A DNA stretch of 64,000 bases from Eubacteriales bacterium (lineage in GTDB: Bacteria; Bacillota; Clostridia; Lachnospirales; JAITVM01): assembly GCA_031551135.1 (NCBI GenBank), contig JAVBOA010000010.1, positions 774 through 64,773 of the forward strand. Direction: 5' to 3'. The position numbers and the translations under genes were made by a program. Below, piece after piece: positions 11 through 61,431 of this stretch. How positions within the stretch are numbered: position 1 is the first letter of the stretch; the number at the start of each line of letters is the position of its first letter. The notes beneath the pieces were generated by a model. It worked only from the letters and a program-made list of their open reading frames with translations. It ran no database searches and was not told the DNA's origin.

Positions 11-649
11 TTATTCGTTAGGAATACCCGTGGTATGCTGTTTGATAATGGCGAGTGAAGCAAGATGCTTTATGGATTTTCTTGTGATATTATTGTACCT
101 TTCTCCGGTAACAAATCGTAGGAAATCCTCATGTGATACCCAAAATACTTCGCGCACTTTGACAGCAGAAAGAGAATTATTTATAATCCATTTCCGGATA
201 CTCTCTTTACCGTATCCAGTGATTTTGCTTATATCTGATATTGAAAGCGCATCGCTATATTTTGACAAAACCCCTTCATAAAAGGTATGTATTTGCTTCG
301 CTATCTGAGCAGGTAGCTTCGAACATTGCTCTTTTTCGTGTTTATATCGTAAAGCTTCAGTGATTGGGATTTTGTAAAAATGTAACCGTCCCTCAATGCA
401 CTTTTCACATAATATACTTCCCGTTTTCAAGATTTTAGTCGCTGACGACCTGCAAACCCCGCAAATTTCACAGAATTGCTTTTCTGTTAAGTATTCAGGG
501 TATAGACCTTTGTCAAAATTCATATCATCATCCCTCGTATCCATATTGTCAATGGTAGGTAATATTGGGGATGATGGGTATTGTTCTCTTGCAGTTCTCT
601 TTTTTGTGCTGAAATTTGCTCTTTGTATCAGTTTTTCAAGAGTGCCCAT
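11..649 (-). CDS. DNA-binding protein with two excisionase/MerR-like helix-turn-helix modules, probably belonging to an integrated element
   Basis: 212-aa ORF. Two similar HTH-like segments (YLTEKQFCEICGVCRSSATKILKTGSI and ALSISDISKITGYGKESIRKWIINNSL), each followed by a short hydrophobic wing. A minus-strand ATG at 3..1 suggests another gene continues leftward. Lies next to a truncated tRNA. Confidence 0.45.
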   Translation of the reverse strand: MGTLEKLIQRANFSTKKRTAREQYPSSPILPTIDNMDTRDDDMNFDKGLYPEYLTEKQFCEICGVCRSSATKILKTGSILCEKCIEGRLHFYKIPITEALRYKHEKEQCSKLPAQIAKQIHTFYEGVLSKYSDALSISDISKITGYGKESIRKWIINNSLSAVKVREVFWVSHEDFLRFVTGERYNNITRKSIKHLASLAIIKQHTTGIPNE

Positions 650-929: not shown

Positions 930-1038
930 TTTACTATTAGAACTGGAGACAATTTGTTGAAAAAAATTTCACAACAAAGCATTCCCCAAAACGCTCCGCT
1001 GTGAAATATTTTTTTATATATCAAAATGTAAATGGTAT
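930..1038 (+). repeat. Degenerate long-form copy of the palindromic intergenic repeat family
   Basis: Shares GAAAAAAATTTCAC...AACGCTCCGCTGTGAAATATTTTTTT...CAAAATGTAAATGGTAT with the copies at 12718 and 56160. The central hairpin is decayed. Confidence 0.6.
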
Positions 1039-2920: not shown

Positions 2921-2954
2921 ACAGTATTTCCATTTTTAAGAACGGAAATAGTAT
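2921..2954. repeat. Mini-form palindromic repeat
   Basis: ACAGTATTTCCA-ttttaagaa-CGGAAATAGTAT. The arms match the family terminal repeat ATACTATTT(T/C)CA. Confidence 0.6.
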
Positions 2955-4564: not shown

Positions 4565-4606
4565 ATACTATTTACATTTTTATATCTTTTAGAATGGAAA
4601 TAGTAC
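4565..4606. repeat. Mini-form palindromic repeat
   Basis: ATACTATTTACA-tttttatatcttttagaa-TGGAAATAGTAC. Near-identical in layout to the copy at 52532. Confidence 0.7.
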
Positions 4607-8860: not shown

Positions 8861-8898
8861 ATACTATTTTTTTCTATTCTTTAAAAGGGAAATAGTAT
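8861..8898. repeat. Mini-form palindromic repeat
   Basis: ATACTATTTTTTTCTATTCTTTAAAAGGGAAATAGTAT. Confidence 0.65.
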
Positions 8899-9066: not shown

Positions 9067-10440
9067 GTGAAGAAAAATTTTAATAAAGTTCTGGTTACAT
9101 CACTGGTTCTTGGATTGTTTGCAACCTCGACAGTTTATGGCGCGGCTATATCCAAAACCCTAAAGGCATTCTACCGCGATATAAAGATTTATGTAAATGA
9201 TGTTCAAATTGATCCGAAAGACCAAAACGGCAACAGCGTTGAACCATTTATAGTGAACGATTCAACATATTTACCTTTGCGTGCGATTTCGGAAGTAACA
9301 GGCAACGCAGTTATATGGGAAGATAAAACATCTTCCATTAAAATCAACAGTAAAGTCAAATATCCAATAGATTATTTATACGGAGATTTCGGACTATACA
9401 GCATGTATATAGACGGCTCAAGAATGACTATACAGGAAAAAATTGCGACAAAACCCGTTTTTTCGGTATTTAGGAATAAAACAGACTCTCGAGATAATTA
9501 TTTTTTTGTTACTATGACTGACGAACAATATAATTTGCAAAAAAATAATGACCGCTTTGACCATATGCGCGACGGAAAGCTTTTGATACAATACAATTCG
9601 CAGGACGGAAATAGAATTATTCTCGATACAAGAAATATTTCGGAAGTAAACGGATATAAATTAGAAGGCATTGATGAAGTCACTAATGTAAGCGGTGATG
9701 AAGTATTTTTTTCATCTTACGCAAAATCAGAATCCGGGACGGATTATTTCTACTATGAATATAAAATCAATCTTAAAACATACAAAATTACAGTTCTGAA
9801 CTATACTCCTTCAAAAGATGACGAAAGTAAATATACTGCTTCCACTAAGCAAGATTTTATTAATAAGCAAATATCCAATCAGCAATTAGCGGTTAATAAT
9901 TATAAAGCTCCCGAATCTTCGATTCTAAAGCCGGAAGACGGCGGTTTATATATTGAATATTTGACGGGTGATAAAGCCGGTAAAAAAGAATTAATTTACG
10001 ATAGGCCGGTTTCCCAGGCTCTAAAATCTTCCGATGATTTGTATTGCGTTCTCACGGTAAATGATGAAATCCTAAAAAAATATAAGAACGGCGGATTTGG
10101 GGAAAGTGGTATGTATTTTGAGGATTATACGGTTTTGCAAATAATAGATAAAAACGGTACTGTTAAAAAAGATTTTATCGATATCCCAAACAGAAGGATT
10201 ACGTTAATTTCTTTCGACGGCAAAACCATCGAATACAGTACTACAATTAAGGAATCAGCTTCCAGATCGGGTTTCTTTAATTATTCAATAAACACAGATA
10301 CAGGAAAAATTACAGTACTTTCTTTCAGCTCTGAAATAATGAGTTTAGGACATTTTTACGGAGATATTACCGAGTACAACAAATATAACGCCGAACGTGT
10401 AGCCGAAGAACAAGAACGCATCGACAAAGGATTGAATTAG
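9067..10440 (+). CDS. Secreted protein with an N-terminal copper-amine-oxidase-N-like (stalk) domain and a repeated beta-rich module
   Basis: GTG start with AGGGGAG RBS and a signal peptide. The stalk domain motif is IKIYVNDVQI...VEPFIVNDSTYLPLRAISEVTGNAVIWEDKTSSIKI. Paralog of the next gene. Confidence 0.7.
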   Translation: MKKNFNKVLVTSLVLGLFATSTVYGAAISKTLKAFYRDIKIYVNDVQIDPKDQNGNSVEPFIVNDSTYLPLRAISEVTGNAVIWEDKTSSIKINSKVKYPIDYLYGDFGLYSMYIDGSRMTIQEKIATKPVFSVFRNKTDSRDNYFFVTMTDEQYNLQKNNDRFDHMRDGKLLIQYNSQDGNRIILDTRNISEVNGYKLEGIDEVTNVSGDEVFFSSYAKSESGTDYFYYEYKINLKTYKITVLNYTPSKDDESKYTASTKQDFINKQISNQQLAVNNYKAPESSILKPEDGGLYIEYLTGDKAGKKELIYDRPVSQALKSSDDLYCVLTVNDEILKKYKNGGFGESGMYFEDYTVLQIIDKNGTVKKDFIDIPNRRITLISFDGKTIEYSTTIKESASRSGFFNYSINTDTGKITVLSFSSEIMSLGHFYGDITEYNKYNAERVAEEQERIDKGLN

Positions 10441-10652
10441 CCCCGAAATTTTCGGTTTTCTTTCTCATTTGGCGGTGAAACGCTGCCGCCGGAGCATTAC
10501 TGCGGTTTGGTTTTTCTGATTAATATAATAAAATCAATAAGAATCAAATCGCATTTTAATCAATATATTAATGCTATATATTTCAAAGGCGGTTGACATG
10601 CACCGCCGCAACAGACCAATTATTTTTATTTCTTTAAAAGGTGGGAATTAGT

Positions 10653-12581
10653 ATGAAAAAAAATCTGAAAAAAATTTTGACTACAACTCTCGTAGTTGGA
10701 TTATTTGCGACTTCGACAGTTTACGCGGCTACTATCAGCAAAACTTTGCAGGCATATTACCGTGACATAAAAATTTACGTTGACAGCAAACTGTTTAAAC
10801 CTGTCGATGTTAATGGAAACAGCGTCGAGCCGTTTATTGTAAACAATTCCACTTATCTTCCATTAAGAGCGGTTTCGGAGGCCGTTGGCTGCGAAATCGG
10901 CTGGGACGACAAAACCAACACAATTACAGTTAAAACCGGCGCAATCACAGCAAACAGCTTTACTTTCGGCAATTTTGGATTATATGATGTTTCAATTGTC
11001 GGCGGCAAAGTTAATTTGACAAAACATTATATAAACAAACCTGTTATTTCCGCTTATAAATTAAGCGACGAAAATTATGTTATTGCAACAATTACAGACG
11101 AACAATTTAAATCGGGAAATTTATCAAATATCAATAATTTCACAGACGGAAAACTTTTGCAAACAATAGATTACAGCGGAAAAACCAAAACTATCATTGA
11201 CACAAGAACCCTCAATAAATCAAATGGCTATTCTCTGGACGGAATTTATGAAATTACAGGCGCAAAAGGCGACGAGATATTTTTTAAATCCGCCGTAAAA
11301 TCCGAAAAGGGAACAACAAATTCATATTACGAATACTCGGTTAATACAAAAACAAATAAAATTACTGTTTTGAATTATGTTCCGGGCTCGAATGACGAGG
11401 GCAAATATGCTCCTTCAAAATTAAAAGAATATGTTGCCCAACAAGTTGCCAATCAGCAAGCGGCTATCGACGGAACTAAACCTGCTGAAACATTTGACCT
11501 TATTTTCGGCAGCGAAGGTTTGACTATAGATTATAAAACCGGAGATAATGCCGGCAAAAAAACTAAAATATATTCGAAACCGGTTTTGTCGGCAATAAAA
11601 ATTTCCAATGACCAGTTCGCAATCCTTACTGTTACAGATGCCGAAGCCAAAAAAGTTCAAAACGGCTCTACCGGATTCGGAACATTGGCTTATCAAGAAG
11701 GCAAGATTATACAAATAATCGATAAAAACGGAAATATAAAAGAAGAAGTTTTGAATATCACAAAAGCCGACTCCACGCTTAAATATATTAACGAAATAAA
11801 ATCCTGTGATGACAAGACTGTTGTTTTCACAAGATCAGTTTCCGTAGGCCAAACAAAATACGACACTTACACTTATTCTTATAACAGGTCTACTAAAAAA
11901 ATAACTGTTACCGATTATACTTCGGATGTTTATACGCTTGGATATTTCAGCGGAAACACTACCGAATTTAATAAATATATTCAAAACGCAATTGCCTCCG
12001 AGCAAGGCGTTATTGATAATAAAAAACCTGCTGAAACATATGACCTCGTAGCAAGCGCTAACGGTTTGGTTATTGAATATAAAACGGGCGATAATGCAGG
12101 AACAAAAACAACTATATTCACAAATCCTGTTCTTTCCGCAGTAAAAGTCAACGATGATTTATTTGCTATCTTTACTGTAAGCAATGACGAAGCGGCTAAA
12201 ATCAAAGCCACTCCAAGTTTATATAATAGCCCTACAACTTGTATTTTGAAAACTATCGATAAAACCGGCGCTGTTAAAAGCGAACATATGGATATTATGA
12301 AGCTTATTGGCACAGCCACTAATCTTTCGACACCGGAAATCGGAACATTTGACGGAAAAAACCTTAGCTTTATAATTCCGGGCAGAGATGATAATGATTC
12401 GAATAAAGATTTTGAATTCACTTATAATCTCGAAGTAAATACAAAAAGACTTATTGTTCGTGATTTTTACTCAGAATTTTTTACTTTAGAATATTTTAAA
12501 GGCATCGCTGCAGATTTTAATGAATACAAAGAAATGAGAATATCTGACGAACAAACAAGAGTTGGCGATTATTATAAATAA
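10653..12581 (+). CDS. Secreted paralog of 9067..10440 with the C-terminal module duplicated
   Basis: Same signal peptide and stalk domain (IKIYVDSKLF...VEPFIVNNSTYLPLRAVSEAVGCEIGWDDKTNTITV). The module KPAET(F/Y)DL...GL(T/V)I(D/E)YKTGDNAG(K/T)KT.I(Y/F)..PVLSA(I/V)K occurs twice. Confidence 0.7.
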   Translation: MKKNLKKILTTTLVVGLFATSTVYAATISKTLQAYYRDIKIYVDSKLFKPVDVNGNSVEPFIVNNSTYLPLRAVSEAVGCEIGWDDKTNTITVKTGAITANSFTFGNFGLYDVSIVGGKVNLTKHYINKPVISAYKLSDENYVIATITDEQFKSGNLSNINNFTDGKLLQTIDYSGKTKTIIDTRTLNKSNGYSLDGIYEITGAKGDEIFFKSAVKSEKGTTNSYYEYSVNTKTNKITVLNYVPGSNDEGKYAPSKLKEYVAQQVANQQAAIDGTKPAETFDLIFGSEGLTIDYKTGDNAGKKTKIYSKPVLSAIKISNDQFAILTVTDAEAKKVQNGSTGFGTLAYQEGKIIQIIDKNGNIKEEVLNITKADSTLKYINEIKSCDDKTVVFTRSVSVGQTKYDTYTYSYNRSTKKITVTDYTSDVYTLGYFSGNTTEFNKYIQNAIASEQGVIDNKKPAETYDLVASANGLVIEYKTGDNAGTKTTIFTNPVLSAVKVNDDLFAIFTVSNDEAAKIKATPSLYNSPTTCILKTIDKTGAVKSEHMDIMKLIGTATNLSTPEIGTFDGKNLSFIIPGRDDNDSNKDFEFTYNLEVNTKRLIVRDFYSEFFTLEYFKGIAADFNEYKEMRISDEQTRVGDYYK

Positions 12582-12667: not shown

Positions 12668-12709
12668 AACGGGAGTTCGCTGAGCGTTTTTGCTCATAGA
12701 ACTCCCGTT
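12668..12709 (+). terminator. Hairpin terminator after 10653..12581
   Basis: AACGGGAGTTC...GAACTCCCGTT 11-bp stem followed by CTTTAATT. Confidence 0.55.
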
Positions 12710-12717
12710 CTTTAATT

Positions 12718-12831
12718 ATACTATTTTCAATATTAAGGGTAGAAAAAAATATTTCATTTCGCGCCAGAAGCATTGCGCGAAACGCTCCGCTGTGAAAAAT
12801 TTTTTTCTACTTATCAAAATGAAAATAGTAT
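12718..12831 (+). repeat. Long-form (114 bp) palindromic MITE-like repeat, orientation A
   Basis: Terminal inverted repeats ATACTATTTTCA / TGAAAATAGTAT. Inner inverted TAGAAAAAAA / TTTTTTTCTA. Central hairpin TTTCGCGC-cagaagcatt-GCGCGAAA followed by CGCTCCGCTGTGAAA. Confidence 0.85.
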
Positions 12832-14675
12832 TAAATAATATATTTTATTTCGATTGGCTTGCTTAATTCAATTTCTTTTATCAATAAATCATTTTCGGCG
12901 TATAAAATTACTTTCGAATCCGTGATATTTTCGGGATAAACTCTGGCTGTAAATGTAAATATTCCGCCAAACATAAATATTTCTATGGAAGAAGAATCTA
13001 CACAGATTTCAAACTCAAATGCAGAATCCGGCTTTTCGGGCAGAGCTTTAATTATTTTATCTATATCTCCCAAAATATTTCGCTCAAGGATTATTGTATT
13101 ACCATCAGAATTATAATAAAAATCCGCAAAATTTTGAATTTTAACACATAAACTTCCGCTTGCAATTCCTTTTAAAACAAAACAAGGCTCACCGCTATAA
13201 ATTTCCCGTATTTCGCCCTGTTTCAACGAAAATCCTTTATCAAAAAATAAAATCTCTCTGTTTTCCAAAATCGGTTTTTGAATTAAATATCCGTCTTTTT
13301 CCGAAAGCATTCTCGGGACAGACATTGCGCCTGCCCAATTATATTTTTCGGTCGGGTGAACGCTTTCCCAATTATCCATCCATCCGAATAAAATTCGCCG
13401 GCTGTTATCAGAATAAGATTGCGGAGCGTAAAAATCCGGCCCTAAATCTAAAAGCTTAAATTCCGAACCCTCAAAACGCCCTGTATTATAATCAAGTTTT
13501 CCGACACTGTAAATTACATCGTGAGATTTTCCCGCCAAAGAAATAATGAGTATGTCCACATTTCCCAAATGAAAAATATCCGGACATTCCCATACTTCGC
13601 CTTCAGCCGGCGCGCCTTCCAGCATAACGGATAAAAATTCCCAATTATATAAATCAAGCGATTTATAAAGCAAAATCTGTCCGCTTCCGTTTTTACAATT
13701 GCCTATAACCGTGTAAAAAACTCCGTCTTTTTCCCAAATTTTCGGATCACGAAATTCCTGTTCAAATTCACTACCCGGCGTAATGACCGGATTTTTTTCG
13801 TATTTAATAAAATTCCTTCCGTCCGTGCTTTTCGCAATGCATTGCACTTCTTTCGGGTCGCCAAAGTCCAAATGACCGGTATACATTAAATATAAATCGC
13901 CGCCGAACGAAATTGCGCTACCCGAATAACAGCCGTTCAAATCATACGGCATATTCGGCGCAATGGCGGTCGGCTCTATTTTCCATTCTGCCAAATCTGC
14001 AGATGAAAAATGCACCCAATGCTTGTATCCGTTTTTTGGCTCAAAAGGATACGCCTGATAAAATAAATGATGCCTGCCATTGTGAAAAACTGCTCCGTTC
14101 GGGTCGTTCATCCAGCCGGTCGGCGGTATAAGATGATATTTTAATTTATGCGGGCCTTTGATCATATTCATTCGGCTTTCGATGAATTTATTGGAGGCTT
14201 CCAGCATTTTTTCCGTTTCGCAGTCTTCGAGAGAATAAAAAGCAAATTTTCGGAATAATAATTTGCCGTCGTTTTTTAATAGGATATTATTGTTTGGATT
14301 TAAGCCTGTATGCATAACGAATTTACTTTCATTAATTAAAATTTCGCAGGAAGAAATATCGTTATAAATCTCAAATTTTAATAAATGCTCGTCATACAGC
14401 TCAAAAGGGAATTTAATTTTTTCTTTTTCGAAACCCGGAATAAAAAATATAATCTTCTTTTTTAAATCAAATTTAATCTCGCATTTATTTTCAAAATTTT
14501 CGTCAGCGTTGAAAAATAATGAAAATTTTTTGGCATCGGATTTTGATAAATCAATCACAAATCTAATTTCAAATTTTACCGACTTTTTTAGCTTCTCATT
14601 TTTTTTAATTATGAAATTCTCTTTTTCAAAACCCTTTTTCCGAATTTGCATAAATTTATTATAGATATCAACCAT
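12831..14675 (-). CDS. Glycoside hydrolase family 32 (beta-fructofuranosidase / sucrose-6-phosphate hydrolase-like) with an extra N-terminal domain
   Basis: WMNDPNG, FRDPKIW and ECPD catalytic motifs. No signal peptide. About 170 aa of N-terminal extension. The stop codon overlaps the last base of the repeat at 12831. Confidence 0.85.
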   Translation of the reverse strand: MVDIYNKFMQIRKKGFEKENFIIKKNEKLKKSVKFEIRFVIDLSKSDAKKFSLFFNADENFENKCEIKFDLKKKIIFFIPGFEKEKIKFPFELYDEHLLKFEIYNDISSCEILINESKFVMHTGLNPNNNILLKNDGKLLFRKFAFYSLEDCETEKMLEASNKFIESRMNMIKGPHKLKYHLIPPTGWMNDPNGAVFHNGRHHLFYQAYPFEPKNGYKHWVHFSSADLAEWKIEPTAIAPNMPYDLNGCYSGSAISFGGDLYLMYTGHLDFGDPKEVQCIAKSTDGRNFIKYEKNPVITPGSEFEQEFRDPKIWEKDGVFYTVIGNCKNGSGQILLYKSLDLYNWEFLSVMLEGAPAEGEVWECPDIFHLGNVDILIISLAGKSHDVIYSVGKLDYNTGRFEGSEFKLLDLGPDFYAPQSYSDNSRRILFGWMDNWESVHPTEKYNWAGAMSVPRMLSEKDGYLIQKPILENREILFFDKGFSLKQGEIREIYSGEPCFVLKGIASGSLCVKIQNFADFYYNSDGNTIILERNILGDIDKIIKALPEKPDSAFEFEICVDSSSIEIFMFGGIFTFTARVYPENITDSKVILYAENDLLIKEIELSKPIEIKYII

Positions 14676-19143: not shown

Positions 19144-20340
19144 TTAATATTGGTCATAAGCTTCTTTAATCCATTCTTCAACATCCGCCAGACCGATACC
19201 CGGGCAAGACATAGTTCCATATTTCCACGCAACGTCGTTCATAATCTTAGGAGCCATAGCAAGAGAATCTTCTAAAGAAATTCCCATGCCTTTTAAAGTA
19301 GGAAGTCCGGAAGCCTTCATAAAATCTTTCAAAGCTTGAGCAGTTTTTTCGCCAAGTTCTTCGTCCGATTTAATGCTTGTTATATCAATGCCAATAGCTT
19401 CTGCGGCAATTTTAAGTCTGTCAGGCATATGTTTTGCATACAATTTAGCGAGCTGCGGAAGACAGAGAGCACAGCAAAGACCGTGAGGTTTGTGATAAAC
19501 CGAGCCAACAGTATGTCCGACAGCATGAGTCAAGTGGCACATAACTGTATTGATGGCATAACCGCCGAGAGAAGAAGCAAAAGCAAGTCCTTCGCGGGCT
19601 TCAATATTATTTCCGTCTTCAAGAGCTACAGGAAGCCATTTATGGATATTTTTAATCGATTCAACAGCATACATTGTAGCATATTTTTCTTTAGCCATAG
19701 GGTCGTTTCGGCAGATACAGTCAAATGAGTGAGTATAAGCATCAAAGGCACATGCGGCAGTTCCGGCAGGAGGCATTCCACAGTAAAGTTTCGGGTCATT
19801 AAGGGCAAGAGAAACATAGCAAGCAGGACCAAAAAGTCCGAATTTTTGATTTACTTTTGTATCGGATATAACTGCACCTAAAGTTGCTTCGGAGCCGGTG
19901 CCTGCCGTTGTCGGAATAGCGATTATCGGCGTAGTCGGCATAGTAAATTTTTCTGTGCCCGGCATTCCCGGTATCATAATACCAAACCATTGATTGATTG
20001 GCGGTGGATTGTGCAAAAGGTATCTGACAGCCTTTGCGGTATCCATAGAGCTTCCGCCGCCGATTGCAATAATTCCGTTTACTTTTTCATTGTTGGCAAG
20101 AGCGCCTGCTTCGTCACAAACAAAATCCGGCGGATCGGCCTGTACTCCGTCGAATTCGCAATACTCGATTCCTGCCTCTTTGAGTTTGGCAAGAAGCGGA
20201 TCAACAACTCCGGCAGCTTTGATTCCTTTGTCATAAACAACTATTGCTTTCGTCATTTTTAGTTCTTTTGCCTTTTCGCCTATAAGCTCTGATGCACCAA
20301 CTCCAAAAATTTGAGGAGCGAAGTAACCTGTCTTTACCAT
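19144..20340 (-). CDS. Iron-containing (group III) alcohol dehydrogenase
   Basis: GIIAIGGGSSMDTAKA, and a His-rich metal site region (THSFD...HLTHAVGHTVGSVYHKPHGL). Start set at MVKTGYF (ATG 20340) with an AGGAGG RBS. Confidence 0.85.
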   Translation of the reverse strand: MVKTGYFAPQIFGVGASELIGEKAKELKMTKAIVVYDKGIKAAGVVDPLLAKLKEAGIEYCEFDGVQADPPDFVCDEAGALANNEKVNGIIAIGGGSSMDTAKAVRYLLHNPPPINQWFGIMIPGMPGTEKFTMPTTPIIAIPTTAGTGSEATLGAVISDTKVNQKFGLFGPACYVSLALNDPKLYCGMPPAGTAACAFDAYTHSFDCICRNDPMAKEKYATMYAVESIKNIHKWLPVALEDGNNIEAREGLAFASSLGGYAINTVMCHLTHAVGHTVGSVYHKPHGLCCALCLPQLAKLYAKHMPDRLKIAAEAIGIDITSIKSDEELGEKTAQALKDFMKASGLPTLKGMGISLEDSLAMAPKIMNDVAWKYGTMSCPGIGLADVEEWIKEAYDQY

Positions 20341-20363
20341 ATAATTACCTCCTAAAATATAAA

Positions 20364-20408
20364 TAAAAAAAGCAAACAACGAGAATCTAAGTACGTGAAC
20401 GTTTGCTT
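20364..20408 (-). terminator. Leader terminator upstream of the alcohol dehydrogenase
   Basis: Minus strand AAGCAAACG...CGTTGTTTGCTT hairpin followed by TTTTTTT, located between leader copy B and the RBS. Confidence 0.65.
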
Positions 20409-20427
20409 AAACCGAACCCAAAAAAAG

Positions 20428-20518
20428 CCATCTCCTTCTCGCAATGGAAAGCATTTCTGTTTCCGGAAATACTCATCGGCTGCTATCCATGACACTCGTT
20501 TTAGGATTAACATCTCGG
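20428..20518 (-). promoter_or_regulatory. Conserved leader RNA element, copy B (riboswitch/attenuator candidate)
   Basis: Minus strand reads CCGAG-N33-GCCGAUGAGUAUUUCCGGAAACAGAAAUGCUUUCCAUUGCGAGAAGGAGAUGG. Matches copy A with compensatory changes in two stems. Confidence 0.6.
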
Positions 20519-20535
20519 TTTTAGCAATTATAACA

Positions 20536-27679: not shown

Positions 27680-27722
27680 TACGATTTGATTCCAAAGGAT
27701 AGAAATAATATGACGAATAAAA

Positions 27723-27778
27723 AATTTCACACTCATTCTGCCCAAACTACCGAGCGGAACGAATGTGAAATTTTTTTC
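27723..27778. terminator. Probable bidirectional terminator between convergent operons
   Basis: ATTTCACA...TGTGAAAT stem flanked by an A-run (left) and TTTTTTT (right). Confidence 0.45.
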
Positions 27779-27788
27779 TTGAAATTCC

Positions 27789-32938: not shown

Positions 32939-32969
32939 ATACTATTTTCATCATAAATGAAAATAGTAT
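32939..32969. repeat. Mini-form palindromic repeat (shortest version)
   Basis: ATACTATTTTCA-tcataaa-TGAAAATAGTAT, perfect 12-bp arms. Solo arm-like sequences follow at 33006..33017 and 33031..33042. Confidence 0.75.
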
Positions 32970-33072
32970 TACCTTAATTTAAATATTATTTATTGGGTCG
33001 AAAAAGATAAATAGTATTTTTATTTAAATGTTGAAAATAGTTTTGTTTGCATTGAGAAAGAAATTGCAGTAA

Positions 33073-33106
33073 ATACTATTTCCATTCTACAGGGTAGAAA
33101 TAGTAT
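33073..33106. repeat. Mini-form palindromic repeat
   Basis: ATACTATTTCCA-ttctacagg-GTAGAAATAGTAT. Confidence 0.65.
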
Positions 33107-37823: not shown

Positions 37824-37936
37824 ATACTATTTTCATTTTGATAAGTAGAAAAAAATTTTTCACAGCGGAGCGTTTCACGCATGCTTCAAGCGTGAAATGA
37901 AATATTTTTTTCTATCCTTAATAATGAAAATAGTAT
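37824..37936 (-). repeat. Long-form (113 bp) palindromic repeat, orientation B
   Basis: ATACTATTTTCA...TTCACAGCGGAGCG-TTTCACGC-atgcttcaa-GCGTGAAA...TGAAAATAGTAT. The central stem carries a compensated change relative to copy 12718. Confidence 0.85.
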
Positions 37937-47130: not shown

Positions 47131-47598
47131 TCATATCAGGCAAGATTTCACATAATCAACCGGAACGTCCATACGTACAGCAGTTTCTTCGGCAGTGAAG
47201 CCGCTCTCCACAAATCGGCGGACTACGCTTATTATATTTTCGGCAACTTCAATAATATGCCCGTCCGGGTCATAAAAGCGAACGGCGCGCTGTCCCCAGC
47301 TATGTTCTAAAATTTGATGCAGATAAGAAATTTCTGAGAAGCTTGATAGCTTATTTGCGAAATCGTCAATATCTTCGACCTCGAAATATAATTCCATCGC
47401 GTTATTTTTATAAATAATTTCATTTTCGGTCTTTCTGATAAATTTTATCCACGATTCAGCAGTCTGCAAAGATAAACCTCCTGACAGCATGACATTCGCC
47501 CCGAAGTCACCAACCACCTCCAAGCCCAAAATATCAAAATAAAATTTTTTAGACTTTTCCATATCCTTAACAGCAATTAATGTTCCTTTATACATCAT
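47131..47598 (-). CDS. VOC (glyoxalase/bleomycin-resistance) family protein
   Basis: MYKGTLIAVKDMEKSKKFYFDILGL...RFYDPDGHIIEV pattern. Start at ATG 47598, 6 nt after AGGAGG. Confidence 0.7.
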   Translation of the reverse strand: MMYKGTLIAVKDMEKSKKFYFDILGLEVVGDFGANVMLSGGLSLQTAESWIKFIRKTENEIIYKNNAMELYFEVEDIDDFANKLSSFSEISYLHQILEHSWGQRAVRFYDPDGHIIEVAENIISVVRRFVESGFTAEETAVRMDVPVDYVKSCLI

Positions 47599-47611
47599 TT
47601 TCATCCTCCTA

Positions 47612-47724
47612 ATATTATTTCCCATTTGATTTGTAGAAAAAAATTTTCACAGCGAAGCGTTCCGCGCAATGCTTCAAGCGCGGAATGAAATATTTTTTTC
47701 TATTCTTTAGAAGGGAAATAGTAT
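47612..47724 (-). repeat. Long-form (113 bp) palindromic repeat, orientation B, diverged arms
   Basis: ATATTATTTCCCA...TTCACAGCGAAGCG-TTCCGCGC-aatgcttcaa-GCGCGGAA...GGGAAATAGTAT. A second compensated variant of the central stem. Confidence 0.8.
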
Positions 47725-47927: not shown

Positions 47928-49193
47928 ATGAGCGGCTATAACGCAGTACTAGCAAGAAATACCGAAAACGCTCCAATAAACGCTTCATATTCGCAAACGG
48001 TAGCTTTTTCACATTACAATAATTTTTCGGCTCAATTACCTATCGATCCAAAATCCGGCAAATTAGTGGCCGGCGGCGTAAAAGAACAAGCCGAGCAATG
48101 CTTTAAAAACATCAAAGCAGTAGTAGAAAGCATAAACCATGTTATGAGTGACGTTGTCAGAATCACTGTATTCGTTAAGAATATCAAAGATGTCGACGCT
48201 GTAAACGAAGTTTATAAAACATTCTTCCCGACATATGTTCCTACAAGAACTACAGTTGCAGTAGATGCATTGCCTATGGATGCTTTAGTGCAAATCGAAG
48301 CGCTTATTTCGAACGGCGAAGGCACAATTCCAAACGCACCGCAAGCAGGCGACTTGATTAAGCTTACAAACAACACGGCAAATGCGCCAATATGTGCGCT
48401 TTCTACACAAACCGTGTCTTTTTCTCATTACAATAATCTTTCGGCTCAATTGCCTATCGACCCAAAAACCGGCAGATTAGTAATCGGCGGCGTAAAAGAG
48501 CAAACTGCACAGTGCTTAAAAAATATTAAGGCGATTTTAGAAAGTATCGACGTTCCTTTTGACGATATTGTTAAAATTAATATATTCCTTAAAGACCTTT
48601 CGGATATTGAAGCCGTAAACGAAGTTTATACAACATTTTTCCCTGACTCGGCTATCGCAAGAGCCGTTGCTTATCTTCCTGCAAGAACTGTAATTTCAGC
48701 GTCCGCTTTGCTTATGGATGCTTTAGTTCAAATCGAAGCAGTGGTTTCACACGGAGACGGTACGCCTCCGCAAGCTATTGAAGATAGACACGGACTTATT
48801 ATCGAAGCAAACAATACAGAAAATGCACCAAAATCTTCTCTGTCTACACAGACCGTGGCTTTTTCTCATTACAATCATCTTTCGGCGCAATTGCCTTTAG
48901 ACGCAAAAGGCAGCATGGTAGCCGGCGGTGTAAAAGAACAAGCCGGACAATGCTTGAAAAATATTAAAGCAATTGTAGAAAGTATCGACCATTCTATGGA
49001 AGATATAGTTAAAGTAAATGTATTCCTTAAAAATATCGCGGATATCGACGCTATGGATGAAGTTTACAAAACATTCTTTCCAAGCGGCACTCCTGCACGC
49101 AGAGTAGTCGGCGTATCGGCTTTGCTTAACGATGCTCTGATTCAAATAGATGCCGTTGTATCAAACGCAGAAGGAACTCCGCCAATAGCATAA
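47928..49193 (+). CDS. Triple tandem RidA/YjgF/L-PSP domain protein
   Basis: Three ~135-150-aa repeats, each with NT(E/A)NAP...S(T)QTV(A/S)FSHYN..SAQLP(I/L)D...GGVKEQ..QC(F/L)KNIKA..ESI...(V/I)FLK(N/D)...(V/M)(N/D)EVYK(T)FFP...AR...L(P/L).DAL(V/I)QI(E/D)A. Confidence 0.85.
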   Translation: MSGYNAVLARNTENAPINASYSQTVAFSHYNNFSAQLPIDPKSGKLVAGGVKEQAEQCFKNIKAVVESINHVMSDVVRITVFVKNIKDVDAVNEVYKTFFPTYVPTRTTVAVDALPMDALVQIEALISNGEGTIPNAPQAGDLIKLTNNTANAPICALSTQTVSFSHYNNLSAQLPIDPKTGRLVIGGVKEQTAQCLKNIKAILESIDVPFDDIVKINIFLKDLSDIEAVNEVYTTFFPDSAIARAVAYLPARTVISASALLMDALVQIEAVVSHGDGTPPQAIEDRHGLIIEANNTENAPKSSLSTQTVAFSHYNHLSAQLPLDAKGSMVAGGVKEQAGQCLKNIKAIVESIDHSMEDIVKVNVFLKNIADIDAMDEVYKTFFPSGTPARRVVGVSALLNDALIQIDAVVSNAEGTPPIA

Positions 49194-50462: not shown

Positions 50463-51542
50463 TTATAATTTCATGCCCTCTTTCCAATCAAGCGACAAAA
50501 GTTTTTTCGAAGCTATCAGATACATCACGAAAGCCCCAATAAACACAATAAATGTAAAAATTATTTTATTCTCGACAAAAAATATCCTATAGTCATAAAA
50601 TCGTATAATCAATAAATTTACCGCGTAAAATAATATTCCCAGTGAATTTAGCTTTGTTTTTATGGGAATCATTATCAACAAATATGTACATCCGTAATAT
50701 AAAATCGAAAATAAAGAAAACTCGATAATCGATTTTTTAAAAATAACTGACGAACAGAGCATGAGAAAAAGCATGATTAAAATCATTAATACGATATTTT
50801 TATTGCTTTTTTTATCAAGAAAAAAACCAAACACGAATATTACTAAAAAAGTAATTAAATGAACCGCAAGTTCTGATAATGTCCGGAAATCATAAAGTAA
50901 TTTAGAATAATCGGTATAAATTTTGAAAAAGCACGCACATGCACTAAGAATTACCATCAAAAATATATTAGATAATTCAATTTTTTCGCTTTTAAATTCC
51001 TCGGTATTTTTGAAATAAAAGCAGTATAAAAAAAATGCGAATAACGAAACTAATAGAAGTATCAGAAAATTCTGTGCTCCTTCGCTGAAAATCTCAGATC
51101 TGCCTTCATTGGCCGCCGAAAGCATGGAATAATTATAGCTTTTGTAAAAAAAGAACTTTCTTATGTAGTAAAAAATAGATTCTCCGATAACAATGGCTGT
51201 GATAAAAATTGCTAAGATTTTGTAGGAGCTGTCAGAACAATTAATAAGCGTGTCGGAAAACAGGATTCCGGTCAAAATACCATGGGCCAATATTAAATAC
51301 GAATAAAACGGTATATTTTTATAAAACAGCAAAACTTCAAGAATCATAAACAGGAAAAAGATAAATTTAAGATTGTATTTTTTTTGTTTTATTATGTGAA
51401 AAAAAGAGCGGATTAAAATGCCAAGCATAATCGAAACTAAAAAATTGCGGTACATTTTATCATCGCTGACAATATTAGCGGACAAAAAAGCAAAAGAAAT
51501 AAATAAAAAAGACAAAATGTAAAAAGAAAGCTTCCTGAGCAT
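50463..51542 (-). CDS. Polytopic membrane protein, function unknown
   Basis: 359 aa, roughly ten hydrophobic segments, Phe/Tyr/Ile-rich. No motif recognised. Confidence 0.5.
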   Translation of the reverse strand: MLRKLSFYILSFLFISFAFLSANIVSDDKMYRNFLVSIMLGILIRSFFHIIKQKKYNLKFIFFLFMILEVLLFYKNIPFYSYLILAHGILTGILFSDTLINCSDSSYKILAIFITAIVIGESIFYYIRKFFFYKSYNYSMLSAANEGRSEIFSEGAQNFLILLLVSLFAFFLYCFYFKNTEEFKSEKIELSNIFLMVILSACACFFKIYTDYSKLLYDFRTLSELAVHLITFLVIFVFGFFLDKKSNKNIVLMILIMLFLMLCSSVIFKKSIIEFSLFSILYYGCTYLLIMIPIKTKLNSLGILFYAVNLLIIRFYDYRIFFVENKIIFTFIVFIGAFVMYLIASKKLLSLDWKEGMKL

Positions 51543-51581: not shown

Positions 51582-51848
51582 AAGCCTTCGACTTTGTCGG
51601 ACACACGTAATTTCATAGCTCATACATTTTTATAGAAAAACGCTATAAAAATGTATTCGTTACGTGTTAAAGCCTTCGGCTTTAATCCGCGGCGCGGATT
51701 TTGTCCGACTTCGTCGGACACACGTTATTTCATAGCTCATACATTTTTATAAAAAAACGCTATAAAAATGTATTCGTTACGTGTTAAAGCCTTCGGCTTT
51801 AATCCGCGGCGCGGATTTTGTTCGACTTCGTCGAACACACGTAATATT
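51582..51848. repeat. Tandem repeat, 117-bp unit, two full units plus partial units at both ends; each unit is a string of four hairpins
   Basis: Units start at 51596, 51713 and 51830 (GTCGGACACACGT...). Hairpins are a long CACGTAA..ATACATTTTTATAG-loop-CTATAAAAATGTAT..TTACGTG, then TTAAAGCC-TTCG-GGCTTTAA, TCCGC-GGC-GCGGA and GTCCGAC-TTC-GTCGGAC. Confidence 0.85.
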
Positions 51849-52456: not shown

Positions 52457-52500
52457 ATACTATTTTCATTTTTTTCTATCCTTTATAATGAAAATAGTGT
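52457..52500. repeat. Mini-form palindromic repeat
   Basis: ATACTATTTTCA-TTTTTTTCTATCCTTTATAA-TGAAAATAGTGT. Equals the long form of copy 37824 minus its central ~70 bp. Confidence 0.75.
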
Positions 52501-52531
52501 TATAACAATTCCACAAAAATAACACTCTGTA

Positions 52532-52574
52532 ATACTATTTACATTTTTCTATCTTTAAAGAATGGAAATCGTAA
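52532..52574. repeat. Mini-form palindromic repeat
   Basis: ATACTATTTACA-TTTTTCTATCTTTAAAGAA-TGGAAATCGTAA. Confidence 0.65.
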
Positions 52575-53409: not shown

Positions 53410-54849
53410 TCAATTTAATGTAATTTCCACTTTTCTTTCTTTTTGATTCCAATCGACTTCGGCTTTAAAAGCCTCCGAAATCGCACGTATCGGGACAAAA
53501 GTACGGTCATTTACGATTATCGGCTCAGTGTCCAAAGATATTTCTCTGTCATTTACAGACATATTATTTTTTCCGATAGTTAAATTTATTATTGTACTGC
53601 CCTTTTTTGCCGTAATATTTTTATTTGAGTCATTCCATTCGACTTCTGCGCCGAGTGCATTAAAAACCGCGCGCATCGGTACGAGAACACGTTCATTTTC
53701 GATTATCGGATTTTGCTCAAATCCTAAATATTCTCCATTTATATAAACCCGAACAAGCGGATTTTTTATAACACCGTTTACTTCGTTAGCAACTGTCCAA
53801 GTCAAACCTTCTCTGAAATCCAGCGCAAAATTGAAAACCGGCTCAATTACTAAATTATTTTTTTTATCAATAAATCCATTTTTGCCGTCTTTGCCGATAC
53901 AAGCCAAGCCTTCGCTGAAATCATAAGCCTCGTCATATTCGAACGGAATTTTCAAAATACCGTTTTTATCAATAAAACCCCATTTTCCGTCCATCATAAC
54001 GGCGGCGTACCCTTCATAAAAATCCCGTGCGTCTTCAAATTGACAAGGTATAATTTCTGCGCCTGTTTTGTCCAGATATCCGAATCCGTTTTCCGATTTT
54101 ACGAGCGCCCTTTCGTCCTTAAAATAAATATCCATGCTCATATTATCGTAAGGCCTTGTTGCGATTACGATTTTTCCGGTTTTATCGATAAAAGTCAGCC
54201 TATTATGCGCCGCAATAGAATCTTTTTCGGCAACGGCGATTGATGCCGGCGCAAGCCCTTCATTAAAATAATCATCAAATATCCAATAAATTATGTCGTC
54301 CTGCTCATAAATATCGCCTATAAGAGCTTTATTAATCAAAGGTTTTTCGATAACGATTTCGCCTTTTTTATTTATAAAATATTGCTGTCCGTCCAAAATA
54401 ACCGGTGCCAAACCGTCATTGAACTCCCCTGCCCAATCGTAGACAAAAGGAATCACGATATTATTATTTGCGTCCAAATATCCGAATAATTCATCCTTTT
54501 TAACAGAGCAAAGCCCCTCTTTATAATCAAAAGCCGATTGATAAATACAAGGGATAACTTCTTCGCCTTTTTTATTTATATAACCCCACTGCCCTTCTCC
54601 TTTTGCAACAACCGCCAATCCCTCATTAAAATAAAAAGCATATTCATATTGCTGCTTAATAACGGTTTTTCCGTCAACATCCATATATCCGAATAAATCG
54701 TCCTCGGAAAAAACCATCAAGCCCTCTTGATAATTTCCGACTGAAGTCACCTCGTTGTCATAGAAAAATTTATAGTCGACCGGCTCTGCAAAAATTGATT
54801 GCGGAAAAACAAAAATTAAAAACAAAAAAGCAATAAATACCCTTTTCAT
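53410..54849 (-). CDS. Secreted WG/KWG-repeat protein with two C-terminal copper-amine-oxidase-N-like stalk domains
   Basis: Signal peptide. Many repeats of F.EGLA.V...GKWG(Y/F)I(D/N)K.G. C-terminal VLVPMRAVFNALGAEVEWN and TFVPIRAISEAFKAEVDWN. Confidence 0.7.
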   Translation of the reverse strand: MKRVFIAFLFLIFVFPQSIFAEPVDYKFFYDNEVTSVGNYQEGLMVFSEDDLFGYMDVDGKTVIKQQYEYAFYFNEGLAVVAKGEGQWGYINKKGEEVIPCIYQSAFDYKEGLCSVKKDELFGYLDANNNIVIPFVYDWAGEFNDGLAPVILDGQQYFINKKGEIVIEKPLINKALIGDIYEQDDIIYWIFDDYFNEGLAPASIAVAEKDSIAAHNRLTFIDKTGKIVIATRPYDNMSMDIYFKDERALVKSENGFGYLDKTGAEIIPCQFEDARDFYEGYAAVMMDGKWGFIDKNGILKIPFEYDEAYDFSEGLACIGKDGKNGFIDKKNNLVIEPVFNFALDFREGLTWTVANEVNGVIKNPLVRVYINGEYLGFEQNPIIENERVLVPMRAVFNALGAEVEWNDSNKNITAKKGSTIINLTIGKNNMSVNDREISLDTEPIIVNDRTFVPIRAISEAFKAEVDWNQKERKVEITLN

Positions 54850-55200
54850 AAAAAGCCCTCCTTCAAATACTTTATCCTTCTGTTGAAAATAACAAGATTT
54901 CATCTATCGGTCAAAAAAATCTTTTTGCTTTTAACTTTATTGTGTATAATAAAATAAGATTAAAATGCTATAATAATTATGTTAAACAATCGTTATGAAT
55001 ATATTATAATACGAATTCTTTACAGGCACAGTATGCTTTTTTTAACATATTATGCGATTTTTTATAGCTTTGGGATTTCCTACACTATCCATATTTTCCC
55101 GAATTATGTCCAAAAATACTCAACTAATTTATCGACATATTTTCCAAAAACATTCTATATTGTCAGTTGAATTTTAATAATTTTGAAAAGAGGTAAATTT

Positions 55201-56115
55201 ATGTTATATGATTGCTTGATAGTCGGAGCCGGCCCGGCCGGACTTACAGCCGCTTTGTACACCAACAGAGCCGGACTTTCCACAATTGTGCTGGAGAAAT
55301 TTTTTGTCGGCGGGCAAGTTTCGAATACTTATGAAGTAGATAATTATCCGGGATATTCACAGATTTCCGGTCCCGAATTGATGCAGAAAATCGAAGAACA
55401 TTCCAAAAACCACGGAACGAATATTGTTTTTGATGAAGTAACGGATATCAGCAAAGAAGGAAATATTTTTAAAATAAAATGCAAAAAAAATGAATATACA
55501 TCAAAAACCGTTATCGTTACAACAGGCGCTAAACCAAGACTTTTGGAGGTAAAAGGCGAATCGGAATTTAAAGGGCGCGGTGTTTCTTATTGTGCGACTT
55601 GCGACGGCGCATTTTATAAAGCTAAAGATGTAGCCGTACTCGGAAGCGGCAATACCGCCGTTGAAGATGCGATTTTTTTGGCGAGACTTTGCCGAAAAGT
55701 CTATTTAATCAGCAGATCGGGCAGATTAAAAGCGGAACAGCGAATTTTGGACCGTTTACCGGATTTTTCGAATATCGAAGTGATTTATAATCATACATGT
55801 AAAGAAATCACGGGAAGTAATTTTGTCGAGAAAATAATAATGTCCAATATATCGGATAATTCTATCAGAGAATTTGAAGTCTCGGGAGTTTTTGTGGCGA
55901 TTGGAATTACTCCTAATTCAAATATTTTAGCGGATAAACTCAGCACAACAAACCACGGTTATATTACTACAAATGAAAAAATGCAGACTGAAATACCGGG
56001 GCTTTTCGCCGCCGGTGATGCTAGGGACACTCCGCTCAGGCAGATTATTACGGCTGCCTCCGACGGCGCAATTGCCGCTTATCATGCATCTTTGTATATT
56101 GCCGAAAATAAATAA
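55201..56115 (+). CDS. trxB: Thioredoxin-disulfide reductase
   Basis: VGAGPAGLTAALY, redox-active CATCDG, GSGNTAVEDA, FAAGD. Confidence 0.9.
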   Translation: MLYDCLIVGAGPAGLTAALYTNRAGLSTIVLEKFFVGGQVSNTYEVDNYPGYSQISGPELMQKIEEHSKNHGTNIVFDEVTDISKEGNIFKIKCKKNEYTSKTVIVTTGAKPRLLEVKGESEFKGRGVSYCATCDGAFYKAKDVAVLGSGNTAVEDAIFLARLCRKVYLISRSGRLKAEQRILDRLPDFSNIEVIYNHTCKEITGSNFVEKIIMSNISDNSIREFEVSGVFVAIGITPNSNILADKLSTTNHGYITTNEKMQTEIPGLFAAGDARDTPLRQIITAASDGAIAAYHASLYIAENK

Positions 56116-56120
56116 AAAAA

Positions 56121-56159
56121 TCCGCCGAAAACACTTTCGCTGTTTTCGGCGGATTTTTT
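56121..56159 (+). terminator. Intrinsic terminator of trxB
   Basis: TCCGCCGAAAACA-ctttcgc-TGTTTTCGGCGGA followed by TTTTTT. Confidence 0.85.
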
Positions 56160-56272
56160 ATACTATTTTCAATATTAAGGATAGAAAAAAATATTTAATT
56201 TCGCGCTTAAAGCCTGCGCGAAACGCTCCGCTGTGAAAGATTTTTTTCTACTTATCAAAATGAAAATAGTAT
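56160..56272 (+). repeat. Long-form (113 bp) palindromic repeat, orientation A
   Basis: ATACTATTTTCA...TTTCGCGC-ttaaagcct-GCGCGAAACGCTCCGCTGTGAAAG...TGAAAATAGTAT. Abuts the trxB terminator on the left and the stop codon of the next gene on the right. Confidence 0.85.
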
Positions 56273-60133: not shown

Positions 60134-60502
60134 TCATACACCTTTATTATATAGATTATGTTTTTTTAAAAGATGTATCAAAGAATCATTAATTTCAAAA
60201 TAGCCCAGCCCTTTTGTTGTGTTTCTGGCAACAACAACAATATTATATCCGCGCGCGATTTTTTTTTCCAAAAGCCTGTAGCTTTCGCGAATACAGCGCG
60301 TGACTCTGCTTCTGACAACAGAGTTCCCGACTTTTTTGCTAACGGAAATGCCTAAATAATTTAATGAAGAATTATTTTTCAAAATATACAATACCAAGTT
60401 TCTATTTGCGATAGACTTTCCTTTACCATATACAATACGAAAATCCTTATTTTTTTTTAGGGATGTGGTAAATTCCAAAAGAACGTCCTCCCGCTTTTTC
60501 AT
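60134..60502 (-). CDS. rnpA: Ribonuclease P protein component
   Basis: LKKNKDFRIVYGKGKS...GISVSKKVGNSVVRSRVTR(C)IRE RNR-like motif. Synteny with rpmH. Confidence 0.88.
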   Translation of the reverse strand: MKKREDVLLEFTTSLKKNKDFRIVYGKGKSIANRNLVLYILKNNSSLNYLGISVSKKVGNSVVRSRVTRCIRESYRLLEKKIARGYNIVVVARNTTKGLGYFEINDSLIHLLKKHNLYNKGV

Positions 60503-60611
60503 ACAAATTCGATTTTTTTCTTAAAACAAATACGCTTAATCAAATAACCTAAAATACGTATAAATAAAAGACCACAAAAAAGTGGCCTCATACTTAAGAC
60601 TTTATAAATAA

Positions 60612-60740
60612 TTAAGCAGACAATACTTTTCTACCTTTTTGACGTCTTCTAAGTAGAACTTTTCTACCGTTTTTAGTACTCATTCTTTTTCTAAAACCAT
60701 GCTCTTTGCTTCTTTGCCTTTTTTTAGGCTGAAACGTCAT
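60612..60740 (-). CDS. rpmH: 50S ribosomal protein L34
   Basis: Not in the ORF track (42 aa). My translation is [42 protein letters not shown]. Confidence 0.93.
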
Positions 60741-60951
60741 TTTCAATTTCAGCACCTCCTTATAAAAAAGATGAATCGTATAAAAAATTTTTGCAAAGCA
60801 ATAATAATTTCATAAAAACAGGATTTTTTAAAAAATCTGTCTATAACTTTGCACACACTGCCAATAAACAGCCATACGAACTATTGCTATTATATAAAAT
60901 AAAATTTTCCTAGTCAAGTACAGTTTTATTATAAAAATTTAATTGTATTGC

Positions 60952-61301: not shown

Positions 61302-61329
61302 ATTTAATTATTAACATTATCAACAATTA

Positions 61330-61407
61330 ATATTTTTTCCATTTGAATGGAAATATTATAAAATATGATTATTTCTATTTTTCTATCCTTAAAAATGGAA
61401 ATAGTAT
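61330..61407. repeat. Two mini-form palindromic repeats immediately upstream of dnaA
   Basis: 61330..61359 ATATTTTTTCCA-tttgaa-TGGAAATATTAT (degenerate) and 61368..61407 ATTATTTCTA-TTTTTCTATCCTTAAAAA-TGGAAATAGTAT. Confidence 0.6.
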
Positions 61408-61431
61408 TAAAACTCCCAGGGGGAAATTCGC

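Follow-up and report, generated by a model that had tools for sequence, protein, structure and literature searches.

A family of short palindromic repeats is dispersed through the window (the whole 64,000-nucleotide stretch of chromosomal DNA that was analysed), and these repeats are best read, at a rough probability of 0.68, as a lineage-specific family of non-autonomous MITEs which is moved in trans by a DDE transposase encoded elsewhere. The repeats are small, carry terminal inverted repeats, are flanked by direct repeats and occur as dispersed copies in unrelated contexts, and it is this combination that leads to the MITE reading. The original prediction had described them as MITE-like and non-autonomous; that description is now supported by 3-bp duplications, short derivatives, unrelated flanks, assembly breaks within copies, and the lack of a transposase in the window.

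The window comprises the DNA around the replication origin, with rnpA-yidD-yidC-jag, dnaA and dnaN. The best named relatives of its DnaA are found in Clostridiales, Tyzzerella and Defluviitaleaceae MAGs, the closest being 88% identical, and no relative of its LtaS-like protein exceeds 63% identity; the host belongs to a barely sampled uncultured Clostridia lineage. A Pfam scan of the 47 window ORFs returned transporters, redox enzymes, regulators and similar proteins, but no transposase, integrase or Y1 domain, in agreement with the earlier statement that the window holds no transposase. The genes next to the long copies are housekeeping genes that are unrelated to one another.

Five long copies had been predicted, and alignment confirmed the coordinates and orientations of all of them. 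The family is nevertheless larger than five members, since it also includes about ten short forms and a sixth, decayed long copy, which brings the long copies in the 64-kb window to six (four intact and two decayed). The long copies, with the inner features of the first one, are the following:

12718..12831, plus strand: intact long copy; the element proper spans 12719-12830, with flanks TTA (12716-12718) and TTA (12831-12833).
12757..12782, plus strand: central G+C-rich hairpin of copy 12718, TTTCGCGC-loop-GCGCGAAA.
12783..12797, plus strand: conserved box CGCTCCGCTGTGAAA of copy 12718; its 5' part, CGCTCCGC(TG), is an asymmetric unpaired bulge.
56160..56272, plus strand: intact long copy flanked by TTA on both sides; a bidirectional intrinsic terminator (56115-56159) precedes it, and the TAA stop of the LtaS-like gene follows.
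37824..37936, minus strand: intact long copy with TAA/TAA flanks and the stem variant TTTCACGC/GCGTGAAA.
47612..47724, minus strand: most divergent intact long copy, with TTA/TTA flanks, the stem variant TTCCGCGC/GCGCGGAA and the terminal-repeat variant TTTCCC/GGGAAA.
930..1038, plus strand: decayed long copy; box and right half kept, left end and central stem decayed.
27681..27779 (approximate), plus strand: divergent decayed long copy (nhmmer E 0.006 with a profile of the four intact copies).

The intact long copies are 84-92% identical in pairwise comparison. Copy size is 113-114 bp, and the ORFs that run across the copies reach at most 45 aa in a frame that is not conserved between copies, which leaves no transposase coding capacity. 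The copy at about 27681-27779 retains AAGGATAGAAA and the inner stem AAAAAATTTCACA...TGTGAAATTTTTTT, lies between convergent genes and abuts a stop codon at 27789.

The ends of the element were redefined as the 11-bp terminal inverted repeats TACTATTTTCA...TGAAAATAGTA. The 12-bp ends described originally are exact in three intact copies, but copy 47612-47724 reads ATACTATTTCCC/GGGAAATAATAT, with two compensated changes and one mismatch, and the twelfth base pair (A...T) of that description is the inner base of each duplicated 3-mer. Inside each end, the arm consists of a variable loop of about 7 nt followed by TAGAAAAAAA(T)ATTTCA on the left and by the complement on the right; the outer arms are about 82% complementary, and the predicted inner A7/T7 tracts are found in all four intact copies. 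The centre of the element is formed by the G+C-rich hairpin, followed by the conserved box, which had rightly been placed beside it. The part of the box that remains unpaired, CGCTCCGC(TG), bulges on one side only, while its 3' end, TGAAA, pairs with an upstream TTTCA in copy 12718. The box CGCTCCGCTGTGAAA occurs five times, at the five sites listed originally (four exact occurrences and one with a single mismatch): it is identical at 15/15 positions in four copies, the decayed copy 930 among them, and at 14/15 in the fifth. It is the best-conserved segment of the element, better conserved than the stems, and a 24-nt pattern that joins box and T7 tract has five occurrences in the window against none in 100 shuffles. 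Each intact copy is predicted to fold into one long hairpin of -32 to -38 kcal/mol (z -5.7 to -8.0); the central stem is destroyed in copy 930-1038, and the folding of this decayed copy falls to -16.9 kcal/mol (z -1.6).

When the ends are taken as TACTATTTTCA...TGAAAATAGTA, identical 3-mers flank all six elements with intact ends (TTA in five of them and TAA in one), that is, the long copies 12718, 56160 and 47612 and the short forms 32939 and 52457, all with TTA/TTA, and the long copy 37824 with TAA/TAA. These 3-mers are direct repeats and not inverted ones; a mere extension of the palindrome would give TTA...TAA instead. They are read as a 3-bp target-site duplication at TWA, a reading of modest power given an AT-rich 3-mer from which one copy alone departs (TAA for TTA), with an estimated likelihood ratio of roughly 15, which is not proof. 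Several short forms carry no matching flanks. The right-hand copy of the duplication coincides, at both 12831 and 56272, with the TAA stop codon of the convergent minus-strand gene (for the first, the TTA at 12831-12833, which closes a GH32 gene). Both insertions are read as having hit the stop codon, with the duplication restoring it. The claim that all copies are intergenic has to be adjusted to this extent, as in copies 12718 and 56160 the final base doubles as the first base in the stop codon of the convergent gene.

The same two copies lie between the terminator of the upstream gene and the stop codon of the convergent one. The terminator beside copy 56160 was predicted by a scan, and the one beside copy 12718 (about 12670-12712), a hairpin with a T-rich tail, was recognised by eye. 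Because these copies have separate terminators next to them, the elements are not the terminators themselves and are sited in 3'UTRs, a placement found for copies 12718, 56160, 930 and 27681. The original alternative of a terminator module is not sustained either: no terminator-like site was found inside any of the four copies scanned, and the terminators adjoin two copies. Copies 37824 and 47612, judging from the signals around them, probably lie within 5'UTRs. The former, which follows a promoter-like site (TTGCAA-17-TAAAAT), ends 36 nt ahead of the ATG at 37972, and the latter ends 3 nt from the AGGAGG ribosome-binding site of a glyoxalase-family gene. The longest ORF at this locus (47131-47625) begins within copy 47612, and an alternative start, AGGAGG-N6-ATG, is present just outside the copy.

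In addition to the long copies, the window contains about ten hairpins of 31-44 nt that carry the termini of the family, detected by looking for ends that occur in pairs (0-2 such pairs arise in shuffles), and a 28-nt arm pattern gave 8 matches against 0 expected. These short forms are:

2923..2954: short hairpin form of 32 nt.
4565..4606: short hairpin form of 42 nt; it belongs to a subtype whose stem position 10 is an A.G mismatch.
8861..8898: short hairpin form of 38 nt.
32939..32969: minimal short form of 31 nt, with perfect 12-bp ends, a 7-nt loop and TTA/TTA flanks.
33011..33043: degenerate short hairpin form of 33 nt.
33073..33106: short hairpin form of 34 nt with TTTCC/GGAAA-type ends.
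52457..52500: short form of 44 nt in which the left end is fused to the final ~32 nt of the long form; TTA/TTA flanks.
52532..52574: short hairpin form of 43 nt; A.G subtype shared with 4565.
61330..61360: minimal short form, degenerate, located upstream of dnaA.
61364..61407: short form, 25 nt before the start of dnaA.

The short forms correspond to the long form minus its inner ~70 bp, with the ends and part of one arm retained. They outnumber the long forms, look more decayed and tend to cluster, with a group of three ahead of 33198, a pair between the genes for the DUF1292 protein and the amidase, and another pair ahead of dnaA. Conversely, the halves of long forms resemble degenerate short forms with 3 mismatches (12718-12752, 56160-56194 and 37902-37936), the inner 'arm' being degenerate. 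Both the clustering and this resemblance would also fit a REP/REPIN-like system.

Further copies lie beyond the window. The Logan contig L006 (7,976 nt), which represents this region in an independent assembly, stops at the A7 tract within copy 56160, and its other end begins inside a further copy located just past the end of the window, beyond dnaN; breaks at both ends within copies are the behaviour expected of a multi-copy repeat in short-read assembly. A search of the element translation against 1.8 and 5.8 billion proteins returned two more copies as predicted peptides (P0241 and P0243) on an NCBI contig of 185,569 nt, with 84-87% identity to the element translation. Peptide P0241 has an Arg-to-Cys change in one stem arm, and the pairing partner of this position is a synonymous third-codon position.

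No family members were detected in the relative with the 88% identical DnaA (L008; 15 kb around dnaA), nor in a more distant one (L009). Upstream of dnaA, the interval from the conserved DnaA-box region to the ribosome-binding site is 15 nt long in L008 and about 100 nt long in the window; the short forms 61330 and 61364 lie within the ~85 nt that L008 lacks. Likewise, the pair of short forms in the DUF1292-amidase intergenic region is missing from a more distant relative (L007). Both comparisons would fit insertion, although they cover short forms only and involve diverged genomes. Among the plasmids searched by BLAST, only matches of 21-31 nt were obtained (E = 1), the box+T7 pattern had no match in the metagenome or viral collections, and the degenerate arm pattern had none in the viral collection. 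Matches to the arm pattern in two mutually homologous ENA metagenome contigs (L010 and L011) have a different hairpin register and were treated as chance, as were, among the genome-collection matches listed, five 18-mer matches (L001-L005) that cover only 18-27 nt of the model. In sum, no convincing homologue was found outside the source organism in the plasmid, viral and metagenome collections or in L008 and L009.

A mechanism consistent with these features can be outlined. A DDE-type transposase from elsewhere in the genome would bind both ends of the element and cut a TWA target with a 3-nt stagger, and insertion would then yield the duplication. The best guess for the partner is an enzyme of the IS5/PIF-Harbinger-type superfamily, because a TWA 3-bp duplication is the product of that enzyme type. 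Insertions would survive only where they are harmless, such as at TAA stop codons (which are regenerated), beside terminators and in leader regions, and the copies would be co-transcribed within 3' or 5' UTRs. Once transcribed, they would form RNA hairpins of -32 to -38 kcal/mol, which could incidentally alter mRNA stability or translation. Several observations do not sit easily with the MITE model. No autonomous partner is seen in the window, and the transposase family is a guess. The ends of many IS5-family elements are typically GG/GA; those of the present element begin with TAC, which speaks against an IS5 partner. Nor does the MITE model account for the clustering of the short forms, or for the unpaired box, whose conservation exceeds that of the stems and extends to a decayed copy.

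What first set the family apart was the preservation of pairing. The central-stem variants are as originally read (TTTCGCGC/GCGCGAAA in two copies, TTTCACGC/GCGTGAAA in 37824 and TTCCGCGC/GCGCGGAA in 47612, with different loops), and in the alignment of the four intact copies the two double substitutions of the central hairpin keep pairing exactly as described. When this alignment was set against the predicted 39-pair structure, 95.5% of cells were paired, and four pairs had changed on both sides against none on one side. The compensated pairs are 10/105 and 12/103 (in the ends, copy 47612), 42/63 (copy 47612) and 44/61 (copy 37824). The observed pairing values were reached by 2 of 500 shuffles and by none of the slid controls, and a simulation in which the observed substitutions of each copy (3, 4, 3 and 15) were placed at random gave at least four compensated Watson-Crick pairs with P ~2.5e-5. 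Disruptive changes affect 7 of the 78 stem columns versus 11 of the 36 variable loop columns (Fisher p = 0.005). The excess of compensated pairs over chance is real, and the pattern shows that pairing between the two halves of the element has been retained during the divergence of the copies.

It had been argued from these changes that selection acts on a DNA or RNA structure. The excess stands; however, the pattern alone does not show selection, since only four sequences are available, three of the four compensated pairs lie in a single divergent copy (47612) and may be inherited from another master, two fall within terminal repeats that must both match one transposase anyway, and template switching in palindromes makes double changes without selection (PMC8794818). 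Selection on the hairpin is thus a plausible explanation, one among others. The likeliest reason for the retained pairing would be that only palindromic masters transpose efficiently, with ends fitted to one transposase and possibly through a hairpin intermediate; templated repair may contribute, and host-level selection on each copy is a less likely cause.

A purely mutational origin, which concerns only the cause of this pattern, is quite conceivable even if the odds lean somewhat against it. Either one event of template switching or hairpin-templated repair would transfer a change between the arms, or the paired states would be inherited from divergent masters. Template switching is known to create and maintain perfect stems together with apparent compensatory substitutions (PMC8794818), and one-sided (G.U) intermediates are absent among the four copies, as one-step events predict. 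The concentration of three compensated pairs in copy 47612, the most divergent, suits both a mutational and a master-copy origin. Master-copy inheritance also gains from the short forms, in whose sub-lineages stem position 10 is T-A, C-G or the A.G mismatch shared by 4565 and 52532; this sharing indicates that stem states are inherited from masters and that pairing at this position is not obligatory. Nonetheless, loops and the edges of the weak helix do gather uncorrected differences, and the limited complementarity of the outer arms (only ~82%) means that homogenisation is not pervasive; four sequences do not separate the two causes.

Two rivals to the MITE reading itself were weighed, both of them unlikely. 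According to the first, the short hairpins are REP-like units and the 113-bp form is an inverted doublet of them around a spacer, mobilised as single-stranded hairpin DNA by a single-copy Y1 (RAYT/IS200-type) transposase; such mobilisation would directly account for selection on pairing. The halves of the long form do score as degenerate short forms, the short forms are more numerous, more decayed-looking and clustered, compensatory changes across the hairpin are common in REPINs (PMC3116915), and the copies are preferentially placed where convergent genes meet, a preference also reported for some REPs (PMC3184786). On the other side stands the direct 3-bp repeat that flanks 6/6 intact elements, which runs counter to the expectation of no duplication. 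To our knowledge, Y1 transposases make no target duplications. Moreover, no Y1 domain was found among the 47 window ORFs, the TTA/TTA flanks of the minimal 31-nt form with perfect ends make the short forms look mobile rather than dead remnants, and internal deletion accounts for the short forms equally well. The REP-like alternative raised originally is therefore kept as a minority rival, in which doublet and clusters fit and the flank duplication conflicts.

It is similarly improbable that the copies are now kept by the host as structured RNA or DNA elements of UTRs, for instance as mRNA stabilisers, as translational or RNase-processing signals, or as binding sites for a protein that recognises the box. 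Exaptation of this kind would account for the compensatory changes and likewise for a box that is so well conserved (15/15 in four copies including the decayed 930, 14/15 in the fifth); every long copy is placed where transcription is expected (3'UTR for 12718, 56160, 930 and 27681, likely 5'UTR for 37824 and 47612), the hairpins are very stable, and the stems vary less disruptively than the loops. Against this, the neighbouring genes have no common function, orientation with respect to transcription is not fixed (4/5 copies are alike, which is not significant), and no G.U asymmetry points to one strand as the functional RNA. Furthermore, two copies are decayed, which means that individual sites are not maintained, and the family was not found in the sampled DNA of the nearest relative nor in the collections searched. 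A related and equally doubtful thought is that the family is not ordinary selfish DNA, its hairpin being kept both for its structure and on account of the invariant unpaired box CGCTCCGC; it might then be an AT-rich REPIN-like system with a domesticated transposase, or a UTR module read by a host RNA- or DNA-binding protein. We know of essentially no description of REPIN/domesticated-transposase systems in Clostridia.

The remaining candidates can be set aside briefly. A small RNA, also suggested at first, has no support, as does a known RNA family: Rfam 15 gave no hit on the element at gathering score (the best, from generic miRNA-hairpin models, reached 26 bits against a 100-bit threshold), and over the whole window only one tRNA and two Moco riboswitches pass. 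A SPRITE-type terminator repeat was rejected since the T7 tract comes 22 nt after the central stem and not immediately, a duplicated gene-end segment since the flanking genes are unrelated, a transcription-factor operator since the half-site spacing varies from 7 to 90 nt, and an integron attC site since there is no cassette context and the neighbours are housekeeping genes.

As a MITE family, the repeats add a new member from a barely sampled Clostridia lineage, with 11-bp ends, a TWA duplication and nested short derivatives, whose insertions include some precisely at stop codons and others a short distance ahead of ribosome-binding sites, that of dnaA among them. They place strong predicted hairpins in the UTRs of housekeeping genes, fragment the assemblies of the source organism, and might be used as strain markers. 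The family would gain interest only if the box or the hairpin had a host function or if the mobilising enzyme were unusual.

Regarding known systems, the duplications of the eukaryotic Tourist/PIF-Harbinger elements are typically TTA/TAA, and TWA 3-bp duplications also occur in several groups of the IS5 family, their bacterial relatives. The new family resembles all of these in the TTA or TAA found on both sides of its copies, but its ends are unlike typical IS5-family ends, and it is a candidate member from the duplication only. A 3-bp target-site duplication is described for PIF-Harbinger/Tourist-type MITEs (PMC2213677). The likeness to RUP (107 bp, Streptococcus pneumoniae), Correia/nemis (Neisseria) and ERIC is a broader one and includes a size of ~100-150 bp, terminal inverted repeats, a duplication, a long hairpin, intergenic location, co-transcription and short deleted variants (PMC3184786; PMC10969869). 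The new family differs from them in its 3-bp TWA duplication, in having no parent found, and in ends and core that are unrelated in sequence. RUP and Correia elements duplicate TA (2 bp), and their parent elements have been identified or proposed.

REPINs, which are G+C-rich and mostly proteobacterial, go together with a RAYT gene and leave no target-site duplication. With them the new family shares the long hairpin, the abundant shorter singlets, the compensatory changes, which are common across the REPIN hairpin (PMC3116915), and possibly the palindromic doublet architecture; it differs in its direct 3-bp flank repeats and in the lack of a Y1 transposase in the window. Among Firmicute repeats, the nearest analogue is bcr1 from the Bacillus cereus group (~155 bp), a non-autonomous, dispersed intergenic repeat with short direct flank repeats that is transcribed with its neighbours and in which compensatory changes keep the fold (PMC3184786). 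Both occur in Firmicutes, are dispersed in intergenic DNA, have direct repeats at their flanks and show pair-preserving changes. Nonetheless, the flank repeats of bcr1 measure 5 bp and its fold is a cruciform of two independent stem-loops, whereas the new family combines 3-bp TTA/TAA repeats with a single long, asymmetrically bulged hairpin, and no sequence similarity between the two was detected. Pair-preserving mutation is already documented for this class of repeats, in bcr1 as well as in REPINs, and the present case is one more example and not the first; the family itself appears to be undescribed and restricted to its lineage.

The window holds two Moco (molybdenum/tungsten cofactor) riboswitch aptamers, which are mutually inverted and flank a divergent gene pair:

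19144-20379, minus strand: iron-type alcohol dehydrogenase gene, one half of the pair
20419-20531, minus strand: Moco riboswitch aptamer, 36.1 bits
20844-20961, plus strand: Moco riboswitch aptamer, 67.4 bits
21049-23892, plus strand: molybdopterin-binding xanthine-dehydrogenase-like gene, the other half

The score of the weaker aptamer is exactly the gathering score.

The ORF at 47928-49193 (plus strand) encodes three tandem RidA/L-PSP endoribonuclease domains, and its DNA repeats of 414-441 nt are 70-82% identical. Copper amine oxidase N-terminal-like domains occur in three secreted-looking proteins (9067-12581 and 53410-54903), two of which are neighbouring paralogues whose genes contain internally repeated stretches (direct-repeat families D9, D11, and D15), and one of the three carries WG beta-repeats.

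Among the intergenic repeats, one tandem array is not related to the MITE family (palindromic repeats of about 113 bp):

51589-51845, intergenic: tandem repeat, unit 117 bp, 2.2 copies, 95% identical

The array lies upstream of an ORF (50463-51542, minus strand) that has no Pfam match. Several small hairpins lie in every unit, for instance TTAAAGCCTTCGGCTTTAA and TCCGCGGCGCGGA followed by a T run, and the array could represent a repeated terminator or small-RNA-like module.

Near the window start, a stretch at about 781-832 looks like the 3′-half of a tRNA, with a T-arm (GGTTCGAATCCCACC) and acceptor; ARAGORN makes no tRNA call there, and its Rfam matches are only to tRNA-like models, all of them sub-threshold. 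It is adjoined by the gene of an HTH_17 (excisionase-type) protein (ORF 11-649, minus strand) and, directly, by the decayed MITE copy at 930. The stretch may be an attachment-site remnant at one border of an integrated element whose sequence continues beyond the window start.

At least one further MITE copy lies just outside the opposite end, since L006, a Logan contig from an independent assembly of the same region, begins inside an element arm (its positions 1-25, CTATCCTTTATATTGAAAATAGTAT and then AAAC), about 200 nt past the window end and downstream of dnaN. Short-read assemblies of this organism therefore break at these repeats.

The short hairpin forms, which share the ends of the long copies, also reach the replication origin. 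The rpmH-dnaA intergenic (oriC) region measures about 930 bp in the window (60500-61432) versus about 430 bp in a relative with 88% DnaA identity (L008, 3353-3779). DnaA-box-like blocks (TTATCCACA, TGTGTATAAC, and TTGTTGATAA) are kept in both, and the extra blocks of the window include two short hairpin repeats directly 5′ of the dnaA ribosome-binding site. Across the window, short forms occur in groups of two or three within about 170 bp, in three separate intergenic regions:

32939-33106: short-form cluster
52457-52574: short-form cluster
61330-61407: short-form cluster

Such grouping is tighter than expected under independent insertion. It could stem from a preference for hairpin- or AT-rich targets, or from a behaviour like that of REP clusters.
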